A DNA stretch of 64,000 nucleotides from a virus (taxonomy: Duplodnaviria > Caudoviricetes), in the IMG/VR virus record IMGVR_UViG_3300037067_004728, positions 41,377-105,376 of that record; one strand, 5' to 3'. Position 1 is the first letter of the stretch, and each line of letters starts with the position of its first letter. Below are positions 4,446 through 45,561 of this stretch, in pieces. The notes beneath the pieces were generated by a model. It had not been told where the DNA came from. It saw only the letters and a list, made by a program, of their open reading frames with translations, and did not search any database. The translations under genes were made by a program, and so were the position numbers.

Positions 4446-5266
4446 ATGTACCACCCATTTATATCAATCTTGCAGACCAACTTCGATTAAAACAATGTCG
4501 ATATGGTCCAATGCTATTTCTTGCCAATGATAGATATATTGGCGGGGCTTTAGATAAATATGGAGAGTTTTCAGAAGGGGAAGTCCACTTGTTTAGGCAG
4601 CTTGTGCAACCAAACTGGACAGTTATGGATGTAGGAGCCAATCACGGAACTCATACAGTAGCCTTAGCTCAAATAGTTGGAGCTTTTGGTAGAGTTTATG
4701 CGTTTGAACCGCAACGGGTTCTATTTCAACTGGTATGTGCTAATCTTGCTTTGAATTCACTCGGAAATGTATATGCTTATTGTGGTGGTGTAGGCCGTGA
4801 ATTAGGCTTTCTTAATGTTCCGCAAGTTGATTATACACGCCCAAATAATTTTGGAGCCTTGGAAATGGGAGGCATTGGTGGAGATTCTGTGCCATTAGTT
4901 ACTATTGATTCCTTAACCTTACCACAATTGCATTTTGCGAAAATTGACGCCGAAGGTATGGAAGGTGATGTGATAATAGGTGCGACAGAAACAATTGCTA
5001 GGTATCGACCATTATTGTACATGGAAAATGATCGTGAAGATAAGTCCCCCGCACTTATCCAACAAATGTGGGACTTAGACTACGAATTATATTACCATAT
5101 TCCATTCTACTATAATCGGTACAATTTTTACGGAGTCGCCGAGAATATTTATGGAGGAACAATATCGGTTAATATGCTTTGTGTACCGAACGACAAGCCA
5201 ATAACAGTGCCTAATGAATGCCATCCAATAAAAAATGTAACTGACACTTGGAGAATTTGTGTATGA
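4439..5266 (+). CDS. FkbM family methyltransferase
   Basis: DVGANHG, AFEP, KIDAEGME motifs; ATG at 4439. Confidence 0.9.
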   Translation: MLNVPPIYINLADQLRLKQCRYGPMLFLANDRYIGGALDKYGEFSEGEVHLFRQLVQPNWTVMDVGANHGTHTVALAQIVGAFGRVYAFEPQRVLFQLVCANLALNSLGNVYAYCGGVGRELGFLNVPQVDYTRPNNFGALEMGGIGGDSVPLVTIDSLTLPQLHFAKIDAEGMEGDVIIGATETIARYRPLLYMENDREDKSPALIQQMWDLDYELYYHIPFYYNRYNFYGVAENIYGGTISVNMLCVPNDKPITVPNECHPIKNVTDTWRICV

Positions 5267-18981: not shown

Positions 18982-19053
18982 TGCAATGTAGCTCAATGGT
19001 AGAGCGCCTGCCTGTTAAGCAGTGGGTTGGAGGTTCGAGTCCTCCCGTTGCAG
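18982..19053 (+). tRNA. tRNA-Asn(GTT)
   Basis: cloverleaf, CTGTTAA loop, GGTTCGAGTCC. Confidence 0.95.
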
Positions 19054-19055
19054 CT

Positions 19056-22823: not shown

Positions 22824-23708
22824 TTATACTTGTATCGAGACTACTAAAAAGATGGTTGACTAAAACCTATTGGTTTCGTGTACATTTTGTATGGCAAAAG
22901 AAAGTTTGGATAGGGAATCTGTGGGTAACAAACGCTGATGAAGCCGCCGCAATACTATCCGAAAAAGCAGTACGTATCAAGTTAATTGAAAATAGGGGCA
23001 AAGAGCGGAATCCTTATATTTTTCGAGCAGGAATTGCTTGGCAGTTGGAGGACTCATCAATTTGGGTTAGTATACAATGATTACAATTGAAGGCAAGAAA
23101 TATAAAGTAGTTGAATCACTCGGCTATAACCACGATGCTGGCACGTATGGCAAAGTTGTTTTAGTCGATGGTAAAGAACGAATTGCCGTAGGCACAAGAG
23201 GATGTTGGAAATTTTGGGAGCCACAGCTTAGACCAGGAAGTAAAGTAACAGGAGCATAATATGCCACGATTCACAAATTTTTATATATGCTGGAAGGGTG
23301 TGGATAATTTTGAAGCTACAAAGCATCTTGACCGAGCTATAGCTTCTACACAGATTAAGGTTGCGAGTCGAATTGATACGTATAAGGAAGAAGGCGATAT
23401 AAAAACACTTGATGCTTTGATTGAACACGCGCCTGATTGTCAATGTGAGGAATGCACAGGACAGCCTGTACCACCTTATATTGTTCCAATTGATCCGCTT
23501 GATTATTACAAGTCTATTATACGAAATGGTAGCGGTATGATTACCCTGCCACAAGGATTAGGAGTGATGGTTGGAAACGATGCTACTAAAGCACCAGCCG
23601 GTTGGTTGTTTGTTGATATTAAAGATTTGACACCCGAAGCATTAAAAGAGTATATTGATGCTGTTCGTGATGGGCGTCAAGCATGGCCTAAAAACTGAGG
23701 AGATAAAA

Positions 23709-24341
23709 ATGCGGAATGATTTGACGGATGTGACATTGGTTATTGATCGTAGTGGTTCAATGGCGAGCCGTAAAAAGGATGCTGAGGGTGGTATTAACAC
23801 TTTTGTTAATGAACAGAAGAAACAGCCCGGAGAGTGTTTACTTTCATTGGTACAATTTGACACAGATTACGAGTTTGTTCATCGTGGTATCAAGATTCAG
23901 GACGTACCAGCTTATACCTTAGTACCACGAGGTTGGACTGCATTACTGGATGCTGTTGGTCGGGCGATCAATGAAACAGGGGATCGTTTGGCGGCAATGC
24001 CAGAAGATCAACGTCCTGGGTTAGTCATTGTAGCAATCGTAACCGACGGTGAAGAAAACAGTAGCCGTGAGTTTACAAAGGCTCAAATTAAGCAAATGGT
24101 TGAGCGGCAGACCAATGAGTATTCGTGGCAATTTACTTTCTTGGGTGCAAATCAAGACGCATTTGCTGAGGCGCGACAACTTGGTATTTCGCGTGTTGGT
24201 ACGTGTGACTATAATCCACAGAATTCAGTGCAAGCATATCGAGCCTTGTCTGATAATGTGTCACGTATGCGAACGGCTAGCGCACAAGGAACCGAAGTTA
24301 TGTGCTGTTACACTGAGGATGAACGAAAGGCAATGTCCTAA
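23709..24341 (+). CDS. von Willebrand factor A domain protein
   Basis: DRSGSM MIDAS, T.LLDA.G, TDGEENSS, FLGANQDA; RBS gaggag before ATG 23709. Confidence 0.9.
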   Translation: MRNDLTDVTLVIDRSGSMASRKKDAEGGINTFVNEQKKQPGECLLSLVQFDTDYEFVHRGIKIQDVPAYTLVPRGWTALLDAVGRAINETGDRLAAMPEDQRPGLVIVAIVTDGEENSSREFTKAQIKQMVERQTNEYSWQFTFLGANQDAFAEARQLGISRVGTCDYNPQNSVQAYRALSDNVSRMRTASAQGTEVMCCYTEDERKAMS

Positions 24342-29966: not shown

Positions 29967-29994
29967 TTGACAAACTGAGTTTTTGAGATATAAT
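29967..29994 (+). promoter_or_regulatory. sigma70 promoter for the Y RNA-Ro60 operon
   Basis: TTGACA-N16-TATAAT; predicted start about 30001. Confidence 0.85.
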
Positions 29995-30001
29995 TAAGTT
30001 A

Positions 30002-30062
30002 TAGGGCCGAAGCGGCTAGGTTATCACTGTTAATGATTCCGCCTACCGCGTTCCTTGCCCTA
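30002..30062 (+). ncRNA. Y RNA copy 1
   Basis: TAGGGCCGAAG...CTTGCCCTA bulged-C Ro-binding stem, GGTTATC motif; upstream of Ro60. Confidence 0.8.
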
Positions 30063-30072
30063 ACCGTATTTG

Positions 30073-30131
30073 TGGGCCGAAGGTAGTCGGTTATCATTAC
30101 ATGGCGAAACCCGATTACCACACCTTGCCCA
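30073..30131 (+). ncRNA. Y RNA copy 2
   Basis: TGGGCCGAAGGTAGTCGGTTATC...CCGATTACC...CTTGCCCA. Confidence 0.8.
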
Positions 30132-30142
30132 TTTTGAACTTA

Positions 30143-30204
30143 GGGGCCGAAGATTATCGGTTATCAATTTGGTTTTGACGCACCCGATAGTCAACCCTTG
30201 CCCC
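30143..30204 (+). ncRNA. Y RNA copy 3
   Basis: GGGGCCGAAGATTATCGGTTATC...CCGATAGTC...CTTGCCCC followed by T-run. Confidence 0.8.
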
Positions 30205-30225
30205 GCTTTTTAATTTGGAGATTTT

Positions 30226-31830
30226 ATGCACAATTTGGCTAAGCACATTTCCGTTAAGACAACCCCTCAAAGCCGCGCTATCCCTGGTAAGAATCAGGTG
30301 CAGAATAATGCTGGCGGCTTTGTTTATTCCCTCGACTGTTGGAAGCGTTTGCAGAGATTCCTTATTCTAGGGTCAGATGGCGGAACTTATTATGCTACGG
30401 AAGCCAAGTTGACGATTGACAATGCTGGTGTGGTTGCCGAATGTGCAGCCACGGATGCACGGCGAACAGTCGATATGATTGTGGAAATTAGCCAGTCTGG
30501 TCGCGCACCGAAGAATGATGCGGCTATTCTTGCACTGGCTATTCTAGCCGCCAATGATAATGATGCTGTGCGACAATTGGCTTTGTCGGCGGTGTCAAAG
30601 GTTTGCCGTATCGGAACCCATATTTTCCAGTTTACGGCGGCATGTCGTGAATTGCGTGGTTTCGGTCGTGGGTTGCGAGAAGCAATTGCAGGCTGGTATA
30701 ATGATAAGCCCGTTGCTGACCTTGCTTATCAGGTTACAAAGTATCGAAATCGTGCAGGATATACGCATAGGGATTTGTTGCGGCTAAGCCACCCCAATCC
30801 TGTCAGCGAGCAACGTGATGATTTGTACGGTTGGATTGTTGGCAAAGGTAAGAACTGGGTTGAAGCCCCTAATGTCGATGATCCTTTGGCTTACACGTAT
30901 GCACTTGATCGAATCGGCGAATTGGACCCGGCAAGTTTCAGGGATGCAATCCGACTGATTGAGGACTATAATCTAGCGTTTGAGCATGTACCGACTTGCT
31001 TCTTGAATAATGCTAATGTTTGGGATGCCTTGTTGCCGAATCTCAAGCCGACTTCATTGATCCGAAATCTTGGTAAGATGACTACTGTTGGCTTGTTGAA
31101 GCCGTTGTCTAAGTCTACAAGCTATGTCTGTGAGGTCTTGAACAATGCGGAGCGAATTCGTAAGGCACGGGTACACCCACTTTCTATCTTACTGGCGCTG
31201 AATACTTATCAGCAGGGGCATGGGTTACTTGGCAATCTATCGTGGCGTCCTGTTCCTCAGATTACGTCGGCCTTGGAGTCCGCATTTTATCTGGCCTTTG
31301 ATGCCGTTGAACCGACGAACAAGCGGCACTTTTTGGCTGTTGATGTTTCTGGGTCGATGGGTTGGTCATATTTGGCTAATACCCGCTTGTCGGCTCGTGA
31401 GGCTTCTGCTTGCATGTCGCTGGTGACTAGCAAGGTTGAGCCGAATACGTACACGCTTGGATTCTCGGATGAGTTGACTGATTTGGGTATCACGTCTCAT
31501 TCTAATCTGAATGACGTATTGAATACGATTAAGAATCTCCGTATGCGTCGTACTGACTGTGCTTTGCCTATGATCTATGCGAAGCAGAATAAGTTGGAGG
31601 TTGATGCGTTTATTGTCTACACTGACAATGAGACATGGTTTGGGAGTATTCATCCCAGTCAGGCGCTTGACCAGTATCGTCAGGCCAGCGGTATTGATGC
31701 GAAGTTGATTGTAGCTGGTATGACGGCCACAGGCTTCACTATTGCTGACCCCAATGATACAGGCATGTTGGATGTTGTCGGTTTTGATGCCGCTTGCCCG
31801 GCTATTATGGCGAATTTTGTGAGGTCTTGA
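30226..31830 (+). CDS. rsr: Ro60/TROVE domain RNA-binding protein (Rsr)
   Basis: NNAGG, RFLILG..GGTYY, KYRNR.G.THRDLLRLSHP, DVSGSM vWA, TDNETW, DVVGFD. Confidence 0.95.
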   Translation: MHNLAKHISVKTTPQSRAIPGKNQVQNNAGGFVYSLDCWKRLQRFLILGSDGGTYYATEAKLTIDNAGVVAECAATDARRTVDMIVEISQSGRAPKNDAAILALAILAANDNDAVRQLALSAVSKVCRIGTHIFQFTAACRELRGFGRGLREAIAGWYNDKPVADLAYQVTKYRNRAGYTHRDLLRLSHPNPVSEQRDDLYGWIVGKGKNWVEAPNVDDPLAYTYALDRIGELDPASFRDAIRLIEDYNLAFEHVPTCFLNNANVWDALLPNLKPTSLIRNLGKMTTVGLLKPLSKSTSYVCEVLNNAERIRKARVHPLSILLALNTYQQGHGLLGNLSWRPVPQITSALESAFYLAFDAVEPTNKRHFLAVDVSGSMGWSYLANTRLSAREASACMSLVTSKVEPNTYTLGFSDELTDLGITSHSNLNDVLNTIKNLRMRRTDCALPMIYAKQNKLEVDAFIVYTDNETWFGSIHPSQALDQYRQASGIDAKLIVAGMTATGFTIADPNDTGMLDVVGFDAACPAIMANFVRS

Positions 31831-40781: not shown

Positions 40782-41130
40782 GGGGACGAATCGGATTCGA
40801 CCGGATAGCTAGAAGTGTAGGATGCGTGCCGTGGTTGGACGACAGGCCACGTAAAAAGTCGCCCGTTAAATCTTAATTGCCAAGCCTAGCTTTGCAATGG
40901 CTGCGTAAAGCAGCCCCGGTTGAGAGTCCTAGCCCGATGGACTTGACTACCGGCCATAAATCGGGACCGCCTTGACCGACGCCAGTGAGTCAAGGTTAAA
41001 TAAACTGGATAGCAACCCGCCAACCTTGTCGATTTGGGAAGCGGGAAGCGAAATATCAAAAATCGACTATGCACGTAGACGACTGCATGGAAGTATCGCG
41101 GGACGCGGGTTCAATTCCCGCCGTCTCCAC
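40782..41130 (+). ncRNA. ssrA: tmRNA
   Basis: GGGGACGAATCGGATTCGAC 5' end, GGTTCAATTCCCGCCGTCTCCA 3' end, tag ORF 40879-40908 AKPSFAMAA*. Confidence 0.92.
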
Positions 41131-42069: not shown

Positions 42070-43350
42070 ATGCCGAGTTGTTGGGAATGTGGTGGCGATT
42101 TTGCTTTGTCCGAGTTGACGCAACGCGGGCAAGCCCATTTTTGTCAACAATGCTACGCCACTTTATATTGCCGCTGTTCGGTATGTGGCCGGGAAGTTGA
42201 ACATGATGAGGCAATTTTTAGTGCCACCGACCACCGGCCATACTGTCAGGCTTGCTATCAAGAGCGGTTAGTACACTGCCATAATTGCGGGCGCGAAACA
42301 AACAGAAACACTCGGCACACAATCGAGGACCATAGCTATTGTAGCTCATGCTTTGATCGGTTGTATACGCATTGTGCTAACTGCGATACCATTTTGCATC
42401 GGCATGATACGTGGTCCACCCCCGGTAACGATAGATACTGTCAACGCTGTTTTGACGAAAATTGCAGCGTATGTAGCCGTTGCGGTGAAACATTTTGGAA
42501 TTGCGATATGCGCCGTACCGACCACGGCGTATTTTGTGATGAATGTTATCGTGAAAATGATGAGTGGTCGGCGGGCGAATTCATTATTTCCGATCCGCAT
42601 TATGATGTAATCGGATCGAAACGCCGCTATGGTGTCGAACTTGAAACTTCACGATGCAATGATTATCGGTCACTGCATGGCAATACAATATGGGAATGTA
42701 AAACAGATTGCTCGATTGAGGGGCGCGAGTTTGTTTCCCCAATTCTGTGCGGGGATGAGGGGTTAATGGAAATCACTGCATTTTGTACCATTGCTCGCCG
42801 AAAGCGTTGGCAAGTCAATAGATACTGTGGTTATCATGCCCATTTCGATGTGGCCGATGAAAGCTGGGAAGCCTTGCGAAGTATCGCGTATGCGTACCGC
42901 AAAACGTATGACTTATGGTGTTGTCTAGTGTCAGAACAACGGGCAAACAACCCTTATGCTGGGTCGCCGGATTATATGCCAGAGGATGTACGGGCTATTC
43001 GCAATGCTTCCGATTGGGATTATTTTGTCGGTGCGCGTGACCGATTCGAGTTTGTCAACTGGCGGGCTTATCTGGTACACGGAAGTTTTGAGGTTCGATC
43101 CCATGATGCTACTCTTGACGCGAATGTCATTTGTAACTGGATTAAACTTCATGCTCGCTTTATGGATCGTGTTAAGACAATGACTCTTGACGAAATTGAC
43201 GACCAATTTAGTGGTAACATAGCATCACAATTTGCAGCTTTGAGCGAATTTGTGGGTGAAGAATTATCTTTGGAATACGCTGTTATTGCCGAAGAATTTG
43301 GGCATACCCTCATACCGAGGGAGATTGTGGCCCTTGCCCCGCCGTTTTAA
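42070..43350 (+). CDS. amidoligase (COOH-NH2 ligase, Amidoligase_2-like) with N-terminal CxxC repeats, paralog 1
   Basis: YGVELE, DCS..G.EFVSP.L.G, CGYHAH.D, R...N, EVR.H. Confidence 0.8.
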   Translation: MPSCWECGGDFALSELTQRGQAHFCQQCYATLYCRCSVCGREVEHDEAIFSATDHRPYCQACYQERLVHCHNCGRETNRNTRHTIEDHSYCSSCFDRLYTHCANCDTILHRHDTWSTPGNDRYCQRCFDENCSVCSRCGETFWNCDMRRTDHGVFCDECYRENDEWSAGEFIISDPHYDVIGSKRRYGVELETSRCNDYRSLHGNTIWECKTDCSIEGREFVSPILCGDEGLMEITAFCTIARRKRWQVNRYCGYHAHFDVADESWEALRSIAYAYRKTYDLWCCLVSEQRANNPYAGSPDYMPEDVRAIRNASDWDYFVGARDRFEFVNWRAYLVHGSFEVRSHDATLDANVICNWIKLHARFMDRVKTMTLDEIDDQFSGNIASQFAALSEFVGEELSLEYAVIAEEFGHTLIPREIVALAPPF

Positions 43351-44505: not shown

Positions 44506-45561
44506 ATGCCAGCATCAAGTTTACCCTTACCCGATCTAGCGGATACCCCCACACAGTCACGATACCAATGTCGGTTATGTGGCCGTCGATTCACGGAGAA
44601 TCCGTGCCGTGGCCCAGAGAATATGTGTCTGTGCCAAAATTGCTACGACCGTGAATGTTTCGTTTGCACTGTTTGCGGACGAATCGAATTTAGCAACGGT
44701 CGCCGACAACTGGCGCTAGAACCCAATGGCCCGCCCGTCGCTATTTGCCGCAACTGTGAGCATGAATATCGAACGTGGAATCATGCGGAATTTGTAGTTG
44801 AAGATGCAAGCTACAAAAAGATTCGCAGTACCCGCAAGTTTGGTATCGAGTTGGAAACATCGGATTGCCCCAATTATCGCAGTCTAAAAGGGGCAACGCC
44901 TTTTGGCGCGAAAGTTGATTGCTCGATTCATGGTATGGAATTCACTTCTCCGATTTTGTATGGCGATGAGGGTCTTGCCGCTGTTGAAGAATTTTGCAAT
45001 CACGCTGATCGTCTCGATTTTGACGTGGATAGCGATTGCGGGTATCACCTGCATATTGATATGCGGGGTGAATCGGTTGACGCCTTGAAGTCGGTTGCGT
45101 ATGCGTACACGAAAGCAGACTCGGTATGGCGTTTGCTTGTCGATTCATTCCGAGCGAATGATTGCGGTTACTGCCGCCGCCCGGAATTTGGTCGGAGTGA
45201 AATTTCGCGGGTATGGGATGAGTACAGCATGGAGAGATTTTGCGACCGGCAGAATCGCTACACTCTATGCAATCTTAATGCCTACACTAAGTTTGGCAGT
45301 TATGAGATTAGGTTGCATCAGGGAAGTTTAGATGCCCGTGTCATTTGCAACTGGATTAAGGCCCATTTGCGGTTTGTCGATTGGGCGAAAGATAAGACAT
45401 TCGACGAAATTGACGACGCCTTTCGTGGATCGGATTTAGCCCGCTGGGAATCACTGAAAGCCATTTTTGGCGATATTGACCTTAACCGCTACTATGGCCG
45501 TGTACGTCGTGGCCGGTTGAACGAAAGCACCGAACGTGAACGGGCCGAAGTTGCTGTATAG
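44506..45561 (+). CDS. amidoligase paralog 2
   Basis: FGIELE, EFTSPIL.G, CGYHLH.D, RY..N, EIRLHQG. Confidence 0.8.
   Translation: MPASSLPLPDLADTPTQSRYQCRLCGRRFTENPCRGPENMCLCQNCYDRECFVCTVCGRIEFSNGRRQLALEPNGPPVAICRNCEHEYRTWNHAEFVVEDASYKKIRSTRKFGIELETSDCPNYRSLKGATPFGAKVDCSIHGMEFTSPILYGDEGLAAVEEFCNHADRLDFDVDSDCGYHLHIDMRGESVDALKSVAYAYTKADSVWRLLVDSFRANDCGYCRRPEFGRSEISRVWDEYSMERFCDRQNRYTLCNLNAYTKFGSYEIRLHQGSLDARVICNWIKAHLRFVDWAKDKTFDEIDDAFRGSDLARWESLKAIFGDIDLNRYYGRVRRGRLNESTERERAEVAV

Follow-up and report, generated by a model that had tools for sequence, protein, structure and literature searches.

Anticodon-arm mimicry at the tips of small Y RNAs encoded beside phage and bacterial Ro60 genes

We report that small Y RNAs encoded beside Ro60 genes carry, in part of their modules, a tip built like the anticodon arm of a tRNA, and that this mimicry is a real, family-wide design. 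It is seen in a phage locus where three such RNAs lie in tandem between a consensus promoter and the gene for a Ro60 orthologue, and it recurs in relatives from viral, metagenome and genome-bin collections. The anatomy of the phage locus, the linkage of its RNAs to Ro60 and the anticodon-loop design across the family are directly observed. We give even chances to the fuller reading, in which Ro60-bound Y RNAs display anticodon arms to proteins that read anticodon loops; the binding by Ro60, the processing into separate RNAs and the identity of these readers are what we infer. The function of Ro60 and Y RNAs in bacteria and phages is a long-standing question. Chen et al. (2014; PMC4201824) reported YrlA RNAs next to Ro60 in over 250 bacteria and phages, and the only firm clue so far has been that YrlA resembles the upper body of a tRNA. 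The second, smaller class of Y RNA described here displays the missing anticodon arm, in many cases with a loop identical to that of a named tRNA.

A promoter, three mini Y RNAs and a Ro60 gene

The window, the whole stretch of 64,000 nucleotides that was analyzed, comes from an IMG/VR virus record of 105 kb that is estimated to be 79% complete. Along one strand, a consensus promoter is followed by three Y RNA modules, a ribosome-binding site and a gene with TROVE and vWA domains. The sigma-70-type promoter (TTGACA-16 nt-TATAAT, 29967..29994, + strand) matches the consensus at 12/12 positions and would start transcription a few bases 5' of the first Y RNA. We scored the modules with a covariance model, R1, for which the three window units were the seed and the Ro60-binding stems the sole declared pairs. 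Mini Y RNA 1 (30004..30060, +; 68.5 bits with R1) has a GGGC/GCCC lower stem in which a C is bulged, GA/UU pairs, an upper stem GCGG(C)UAGG/CCUACCGC, a GGUUAUC motif and an apical hairpin. Mini Y RNA 2 (30074..30130, +; 73.7 bits) is built on the same Ro60-binding scaffold, with a 9-bp upper stem, and ends in a 20-nt apical loop without a convincing hairpin. Mini Y RNA 3 (30143..30204, +; 67.2 bits) combines a lower stem GGGGC/GCCCC and a 9-bp upper stem with the GGUUAUC motif and an apical hairpin.

These tandem modules of 57-62 nt carry the blocks GGGCCGAAG / GGUUAUC / CUUGCCC, which are of the metazoan-like type; GGGCCGAAG, GGUUAUCA and CCUUGCCC are common to all three units, while other positions differ. 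Each unit adopts the same fold: above a bulged-C lower stem come two GA/UU pairs and an internal loop, then an upper stem of 8-9 bp and a variable tip. The terminal helix with its bulged C and GGUCCGA-like 5' strand, GGGC-C-GA...UU-GCCC, is present in 3/3 copies and aligns with the Rfam Y_RNA consensus. The fold z-scores of the three modules range from -2.3 to -3.2, and the units fold independently within the 230-nt leader.

The initial annotation had called these units Y RNAs, a label that we find borne out by the promoter-array-Ro60 order, the bulged-C helix, the GGUUAUC motif and sub-threshold Rfam matches. At curated thresholds, Rfam gave no match for the three units. In a relaxed search, copies 2 and 3 reached 23.8 and 17.0 bits with Y_RNA (RF00019), whose gathering score is 38, and copy 2, the best match to both families, aligned with the nematode sbRNA (RF01656) at 28.6 bits (gathering score 38); copy 1 gave no Y_RNA match even in the relaxed search. 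The sub-threshold alignments cover GGNCCGAAG...GGUUAUC...CUUGCCC, and the Y RNA label is well founded because these aligned blocks are exactly the conserved ones. Neither a T arm (GGUUCRANYC) nor a D-loop motif was found in the window modules, which gave no tRNA or YrlA match either. From their sequences, the units are most probably small, metazoan-like Y RNAs rather than tRNA-like YrlA RNAs, and would be expected to bind Ro60.

The last Y RNA module ends 22 nt 5' of the TROVE+vWA open reading frame, on the same strand. This gene (30226..31830, +) encodes a Ro60 orthologue of 534 aa with a TROVE domain (PF05731, 2e-39) and a Ro60-type vWA domain (PF25045, 2.3e-65), presumed to be the protein partner of the three RNAs; its two closest relatives share 86% and 77% identity with it. 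The short interval before it (30205..30225, +) holds a U-run, GCUUUUUAAUUU, that abuts the G+C-rich lower stem of copy 3, and then the Shine-Dalgarno sequence GGAG (30217-30220). A simple terminator scan gave no flag at 30205..30225. The U-run may terminate part of the transcripts and so adjust how much Y RNA is made relative to Ro60 mRNA.

This layout bears on a different reading, in which the array is mainly a cis-acting 5' UTR of the Ro60 mRNA, bound by Ro60 in feedback on its own synthesis, with the copy 3 stem and U-run forming an attenuator and the tips incidental. A single promoter precedes the array, with no other good promoter before the Ro60 start, the ribosome-binding site comes 13 nt after copy 3, and a G+C-rich stem is followed by UUUUU, all as such a leader would have it. 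However, in some relatives the modules are found on the downstream side of Ro60 or at a distance of hundreds of bases, or form arrays of up to five or more, and in known bacterial systems precursors of this kind are processed to stable Y RNAs (PMC4201824). A mainly cis-acting role, which also leaves the anticodon design unexplained, seems to us very unlikely, although regulation of this kind is compatible with the display of anticodon arms.

Anticodon-like tips in the phage locus and its relatives

The tip of copy 1 is a hairpin, AUCA-CUGUUAA-UGAU (30023..30037, +), with a 4-bp stem and a 7-nt loop. Numbered as in a tRNA, the loop reads C32 U33 G34 U35 U36 A37 A38, with the pyrimidine at 32, the U at 33 and the purine at 37 of an anticodon loop. 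It is identical to the loop of the phage's own tRNA-Asn(GUU) (18982..19054, +) and to 18 tRNA-Asn loops in related loci. The anticodon stem of the phage tRNA, CCUGC/GCAGU, is unrelated to the copy 1 stem. Copy 3 ends in a similar hairpin, UCAA-UUUGGUU-UUGA (30164..30178, +), again with a 4-bp stem and a 7-nt loop. Here, U32 and U33 are followed by the triplet UGG and then by U37 and U38, so that the purine at 37 is missing. A U at position 37 is almost never found in real tRNAs. The loop UUUGGUU equals 0/614 real tRNA loops gathered in these related loci, where the tRNA-Pro(UGG) loops read UUUGGGA, CUUGGGA and CUUGGAA. Both window stems have 4 bp, not 5 bp as in tRNA, and both hairpins are present in the minimum-energy and centroid folds as well as in the fold of the whole 230-nt leader. 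Copy 2 has no 7-nt-loop hairpin of at least 3 bp, and its centroid fold leaves the 20-nt loop open.

The initial annotation had read all three tips as anticodon stem-loops, that of copy 2 as a weaker one. For copy 1 its claim stands in full: the hairpin is where it was placed, it is present in the folds, and its loop is that of the phage's own tRNA-Asn. For copy 3, proposed as a Pro loop, the hairpin, U33 and the UGG triplet hold, while U37 and the want of a matching real tRNA loop make the mimicry imperfect. The "Val" TAC loop proposed for copy 2 finds no support, as its stem consists of a U.G and a C-G pair and nothing more.

When the tails were shuffled, a stem of at least 4 bp closing a 7-nt loop with U33 arose with P ~0.03 in copy 1 and P ~0.09 in copy 3. 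On its own, the window is thus modest, suggestive evidence for mimicry; the comparative data make it strong.

Relatives were collected with a Ro60 profile made from 30 relatives, giving 80 loci each from the viral, metagenome and genome-bin collections, flanks included; the profile was needed, as a search of viral contigs with a single Ro60 sequence returned no relatives. R1, which was seeded with the window's own loops and could favor like loops, gave 143, 88 and 86 matches in the three sets (317 in total). All of them but 2/317 are on the Ro60 strand, mostly just upstream of Ro60, and they are often arrayed in two to five modules spaced 0-25 nt apart. A second model, R2, was built from the viral matches, and 215/215 of its matches are on the Ro60 strand. 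One relative (L145:2365-2436) passes the sbRNA gathering score. Long modules (at least 95 nt) account for 43/296, or ~15%, and since 34/43 contain a T-loop motif, most of these are YrlA-like; some long relatives combine both tRNA-mimicking parts. A 14-base handle pattern run over the viral contigs returned mostly chance matches, with real modules in ~10/80 loci.

Our census of tips was made on 200 distinct short modules whose tip is at most 30 nt long and starts with UUAYC, sequences that are related by descent and do not count as independent events. In each module we took the strongest hairpin with a 5' strand starting in or near UUAUC, and shuffles of the sequence after UUAUC served as the null. 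The loops of homologous arrays prove to be far from random and carry the anticodon-like bias whose absence, for the initial annotation, would have refuted the idea. Seven nucleotides is the most frequent loop length in the viral and metagenome sets (51/145, with 12.3 expected; the next commonest size occurs 18 times), and 0/500 shuffles reach 51. Over the three sets, a 7-nt loop is the best hairpin in 66/200 modules against 16.4 expected. The full pattern, a 7-nt loop with Y32-U33...R37, is found in 43/200 modules against ~1.2 in shuffles, a ~36-fold enrichment that holds in viral (21/97), metagenome (12/48) and genome-bin modules (10/55), where 0.7, 0.3 and 0.2 are expected; no shuffle reaches the observed count. 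With any register allowed, 59 modules qualify, which puts the share of short modules with the design between about 22% (best hairpin) and 30% (any register). A chance resemblance in two A+U-rich loops, which the window-only shuffles might have allowed, is refuted by this enrichment in three collections, by the absence of any shuffle reaching the counts and by the tRNA loop identities described below; we regard its probability as vanishingly small.

Other features of the hairpins follow tRNA as well. Position 38 of the 59 loops, which played no part in the selection, is A in 35, C in 14, U in 7 and G in 3 (59/24/12/5%), close to its makeup in the 614 real tRNAs from these loci (70% A, 16% C, 9% U, 6% G). 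A fourth stem pair is present in 44/59 hairpins against 39% in shuffles (P = 4e-8); the stems have 3 bp in 15 cases, 4 bp in 28 and 5 bp in 16. Among 73 loops picked on Y32-U33 alone, a purine occupies position 37 in 59 (81%) and position 35 in 29 (40%). We therefore reject an interpretation as YUNR antisense-type U-turn loops, whose conserved purine would be at 35, since the position of the conserved purine fits tRNA. T-loop look-alikes, which would fit Y-U...R as well, were also considered and rejected: C at loop position 3 together with A at 5 occurs only in CUCGAAA and CUCAAAU (5/59), and an equivalent of U54 occurs in none.

The loops often go beyond the general pattern to reproduce a particular tRNA. 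A real tRNA anticodon loop is matched exactly by 35/59 modules (59%), against 17% expected within the same pattern (P ~7e-13), and the excess remains when distinct loops are counted (14/36, P = 0.002). CUGUUAA matches tRNA Asn; CUGCUAA, CUCGAAA and CUUGAAA match tRNA Ser; CUUGUAA and CUCGUAA match tRNA Thr; and CUGCAAA, CUUCUAA, CUUUUAA, CUUAUAA and CUGAAAA match tRNA Cys, Arg, Lys, Ile and Phe, respectively. Triplet usage is strongly uneven, GUU being the commonest (13/59 modules). When 12 CUGUUAA modules are aligned, the loop is the sole invariant block besides a few Ro60-binding positions. The hairpin stems that carry it take at least seven forms with compensating changes (AUCA/UGAU, ACCA/UGGU, CCU/AGG, UCGU/ACGA and others), and the upper stems of the 12 modules are unrelated, again changed with compensation. 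An invariant loop amid diverging stems suggests that the loop itself is under selection. Pairs from the window point the same way: copy 3 and a module of a related locus (L005:2408-2473) are alike, save one, over ~20 apical bases and differ, with compensation, in their upper stems, and copy 1 and a second module of that locus (L005:1869-1932) likewise combine apical likeness with differing upper stems. The R2 alignment contributed 14 short tips outside the earlier sets, one of them window copy 1 with its boundary shifted by one base; among the remaining 13, the design is found in 5, including UUUGGGA, the commonest tRNA-Pro loop.

These data also weigh on the idea that the 7-nt U-turn loop is a structural cap, a compact and nuclease-resistant closure of the tip whose triplet is meaningless, on RNAs that only gate the Ro60 ring. 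In most modules the loop is of another size or the tip hairpin is absent, copy 2 does without such a hairpin, the stems are short, the triplets show no link to neighboring tRNA genes, and Chen et al. (2014), describing small hairpin Y RNAs with small pyrimidine-rich loops, give them no tRNA role. A cap, however, does not account for a whole CUGUUAA that stays invariant in 12 aligned modules despite diverged stems, for loops that equal real tRNA loops more than three times as often as expected within Y-U-NNN-R, or for triplets used as unevenly as GUU is. We consider this explanation unlikely, and retain anticodon-arm mimicry as the reading of the tips.

Putative readers of the displayed loops

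In the mechanism that we propose, the three Y RNAs would be co-transcribed from one strong promoter as a leader of Ro60, which would be processed into separate RNAs and bound by Ro60 through the conserved bulged stem. The variable tip would be the effector end, presenting an exact tRNA-Asn loop in copy 1, a Pro-like UGG in copy 3 and an open loop of 20 nt in copy 2. The Ro60 particle would in this way present anticodon arms for recognition by proteins that read such loops, which could thereby be captured, titrated or recruited. Among candidate partners, tRNA-cleaving nucleases engaged in conflict over tRNAs may be the most plausible, with the loops acting as bait or sacrificial substrate; alternatively, the partners could be enzymes of anticodon-loop repair or modification. 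In known Y RNAs, the loop end links Ro60 to an effector (PMC4201824; PMC12135203), and reading the hairpins as recognition sites is most economical because all studied Y RNAs hold another protein by the end distal to Ro60.

One such protein is already known, and the tips might simply bind the KH and S1 domains of host PNPase, their likeness to anticodon arms playing no part. Y RNAs link Ro60 to PNPase in Deinococcus and Salmonella (PMC4201824), phage phiLo has Y-like RNAs that bind PNPase and enter ternary complexes (PMC12135203), and the open loop of copy 2, at 20 nt, would be a fitting site for domains that bind single strands. KH and S1 domains, however, take single-stranded RNA with little sequence demand, which leaves unaccounted for a closed 7-nt loop, tRNA-specific positions 32, 33, 37 and 38, and exact tRNA loops. 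As the full explanation of the tips we find PNPase tethering distinctly unlikely; it is compatible with the display of anticodon arms, and the two are not exclusive.

A putative role as bait for, or competitor of, tRNA-cleaving nucleases would fit the neighborhood of the array. The record encodes eight tRNAs and one tmRNA, and the Ro60 locus sits amid tRNA genes. Also among these genes, 3.5 kb upstream of the array, is an RNA ligase (PF09414, 25906..26745, +), which we take as context only, of RNA repair. In counts made without a control set, a PF09414 ligase is present in 17/50 Ro60-bearing viral records, the five nearest relatives included, and RtcB in 2/50. RtcB lies within 2.5 kb of Ro60 in 12/240 loci, 0 of which are viral. 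The bait role would likewise fit the diversity of loops seen in a single array and the action of nucleases on bare stem-loops: isolated anticodon stem-loops are cut by the immune nuclease Cas13b (PMC13692257).

A bolder version would make Ro60 particles a programmable display for anticodon arms, in which each mini Y RNA baits one class of anticodon nuclease, such as PrrC, AriB, Cas13, colicin E5 or VapC. We hold this version to be improbable. If true, the arrays would turn over, tracking the nucleases met by the phage or cell, and would form an RNA-based counterpart of protein anti-defense sponges; together with YrlA-type RNAs, the partner RNAs of Ro60 would then cover every part of a tRNA.

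Some narrower interpretations did not hold. A special tie of copy 1 to the phage's own tRNA-Asn was rejected: across loci, the loop triplet matches a tRNA anticodon of the same locus in 5 cases against 3.8 by permutation (P = 0.32). Since there is no triplet-tRNA association, and with the two stems unrelated, the match reflects a near-universal tRNA-Asn loop. A queuosine enzyme as the target of GUU loops was rejected as a general explanation, as most loops are not G34-U35; neither a TGT nor a DpdA gene was found in the phage record, though a host TGT may still act on such loops. A purely anti-defense phage role cannot be the whole story either, because the design is as frequent in bacterial genome-bin loci (10/55) as in viral contigs. 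One such locus (L228) also has a neighboring RtcB gene. The occurrence in genome bins speaks for a broader involvement in tRNA damage and repair.

The initial annotation had presented the anti-defense role of Y RNAs as undescribed. For the anticodon-arm design this holds in the literature covered, in which we found no description of anticodon-arm mimicry on Y RNAs. The general idea is older, as YrlA's tRNA-like domain has been suggested to act as a competitive inhibitor of an anticodon nuclease (Hughes et al., 2020; PMC7790460). Our findings direct the search for Ro60 partners to proteins that read anticodon loops, namely immune and toxin tRNA nucleases, repair ligases and modification enzymes, for which 60-nt RNAs and their loop mutants would be simple test reagents. 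The idea is directly testable because related RNAs are encoded by cultured phages, the Streptomyces phages Coruscant and Beuffert.

Comparison with known RNAs

Like tRNA anticodon stem-loops, the tips that carry the design have a 7-nt loop with Y32, U33, R37 and, in most cases, A38, and the exact loops of eight tRNA types recur among them; unlike these, their stems vary from 3 to 5 bp across the family and stand on a Ro60-binding helix instead of a tRNA body. Protein recognition of such loops is made more plausible by PARIS, whose effector AriB targets tRNA-Asn(GUU), as it does Thr(UGU) and Lys(UUU) (PMC12409363). As with the tRNAs by which phage T5 bypasses AriB, a phage here carries tRNA-related RNAs in one genomic neighborhood, and the family displays loops of all three of these tRNAs. 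T5 tRNAs are full and functional and replace the cleaved ones, whereas the window RNAs carry the anticodon arm only and so would not rescue translation directly.

The window RNAs share with metazoan Y RNAs and nematode sbRNAs (RF00019, RF01656) the bulged-C helix, a CCGAAG...GGUUAUC...CUUG core and a variable loop past the upper stem. They differ from both in scoring below threshold, in being shorter and arrayed behind a bacterial-type promoter, and in that their UUAUC supplies the 5' strand for an anticodon-like hairpin. Compared by description, they also resemble YrlB of Salmonella and M. smegmatis, Yrn2 of D. radiodurans and Yrl1 and Yrl2 of phiLo, all short hairpin RNAs that Ro60 binds and whose genes lie next to its own. 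In phiLo, a Thermus phage described in 2025, the two Y-like RNAs both lie upstream of the phage Ro60, as in the window array, and bind PNPase; the anticodon is not mentioned (PMC12135203).

The closest parallel in concept is YrlA (PMC4201824; bioRxiv 10.1101/312249). Both kinds of RNA have a Ro60 gene as same-strand neighbor, a GNCGAA-type stem and an effector end that imitates tRNA, and both often occur as several per locus; YrlA RNAs are processed from one precursor, as the window RNAs would be. YrlA, however, mimics the T arm, D arm and acceptor stem, and its tRNA mimicry "lacks the anticodon loop" (YrlA crystal structure, bioRxiv 10.1101/312249), whereas the window RNAs, ~60 nt long, have the anticodon arm only. 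Taken together, our findings add to the known bacterial Y RNA mimics the one part of tRNA absent from them, the anticodon arm.

An anticodon-arm mimic before the T arm of long Y RNAs

Long Y RNAs lie near the annotated Ro-like genes of two cultured Streptomyces phages, Coruscant and Beuffert (L367:1134-1240 and L365:905-1044), and in both a hairpin with a His-type CUGUGAA loop lies immediately 5' of the T arm (stems CUUA/UAAG and UUAUA/UAUAA). In a YrlA-like RNA, therefore, an anticodon-arm mimic can itself serve as the "V" stem-loop, and an RNA built in this way is a nearly complete permuted tRNA. Similar hairpins are found at four further Ro60-bearing loci, with the loops CUUGUAA (L066:2271-2390), CUGCAAC (L117:2453-2584) and, in two cases, CUGUCAA (L094:539-657 and L172:1488-1606).

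tRNA-like sequences within and next to Y RNAs

Two Y RNAs enclose within their stem a tRNA-like insert in normal order. At L104:629-734 the anticodon arm (CCGGC-CUCUUAA-GCCGG) is followed by a variable loop and a T arm. D, anticodon and T arms are all present in the insert at L145:325-442, a metagenome locus, and the Ro60-binding stem thus appears to stand in for the acceptor stem.

Directly 5' of the mini Y RNAs, five loci harbor Rfam tRNA matches of ~100–130 nt (L001:399-528, L071:2075-2200, L050:2147-2269, L005:1625-1755 and L006:2260-2357), none of which was called as a tRNA by ARAGORN. The L001 RNA is a tRNA body with acceptor, D and T arms and an anticodon stem, where the anticodon loop is swapped for a capped Y-type stem (CUUGCC-UGAU-GGGCCGAA...GUUAUC). 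Its topology is the same as that of YrlA, although the acceptor ends are open in L001.

Genes and Y-like modules around Ro60

The phage encodes a tmRNA (window positions 40782-41130; 172.5 bits) with the tag peptide AKPSFAMAA, and its record holds eight tRNA genes (Met, Tyr, Asn, Ile-UAU, Ser-GCU, Leu-UAA, Glu and His). Together with an RNA ligase, these genes form a translation-maintenance neighborhood around Ro60. The window also encodes two Amidoligase_2-domain proteins (42070-43350, whose N terminus bears zinc-ribbon and LIM-like motifs, and 44506-45561). Besides Ro60 itself, a small protein of 228 aa (23655-24341), encoded 6 kb upstream of Ro60, has weak vWA-domain matches (E ~1e-3).

The biggest array of Y-like modules that we observed comprises at least 11, short and long, within 2.3 kb upstream of a single phage Ro60 gene (L040:180-2471). 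In the cultured Gordonia phage GMA2 (L366), two modules (1925-1992 and 4491-4559) sit on either side of a Ro60 gene not annotated as such (Orf59, "hypothetical protein"), one of them immediately preceding a cluster of 16 tRNA genes. The closest relative of the window Ro60 in the genome collection (58% identity), from a Thermoguttaceae genome bin (Planctomycetota; L161), has three mini Y RNAs upstream.

Likeness to animal Y RNAs

A mini Y RNA adjoining the Ro60 gene of the L145 metagenome contig (2365-2436) scores 41.5 bits against the nematode stem-bulge RNA family RF01656, passing the curated Rfam threshold of 38. Mini Y RNAs resemble animal Y RNA and sbRNA more closely than they do the bacterial Y RNAs described to date.
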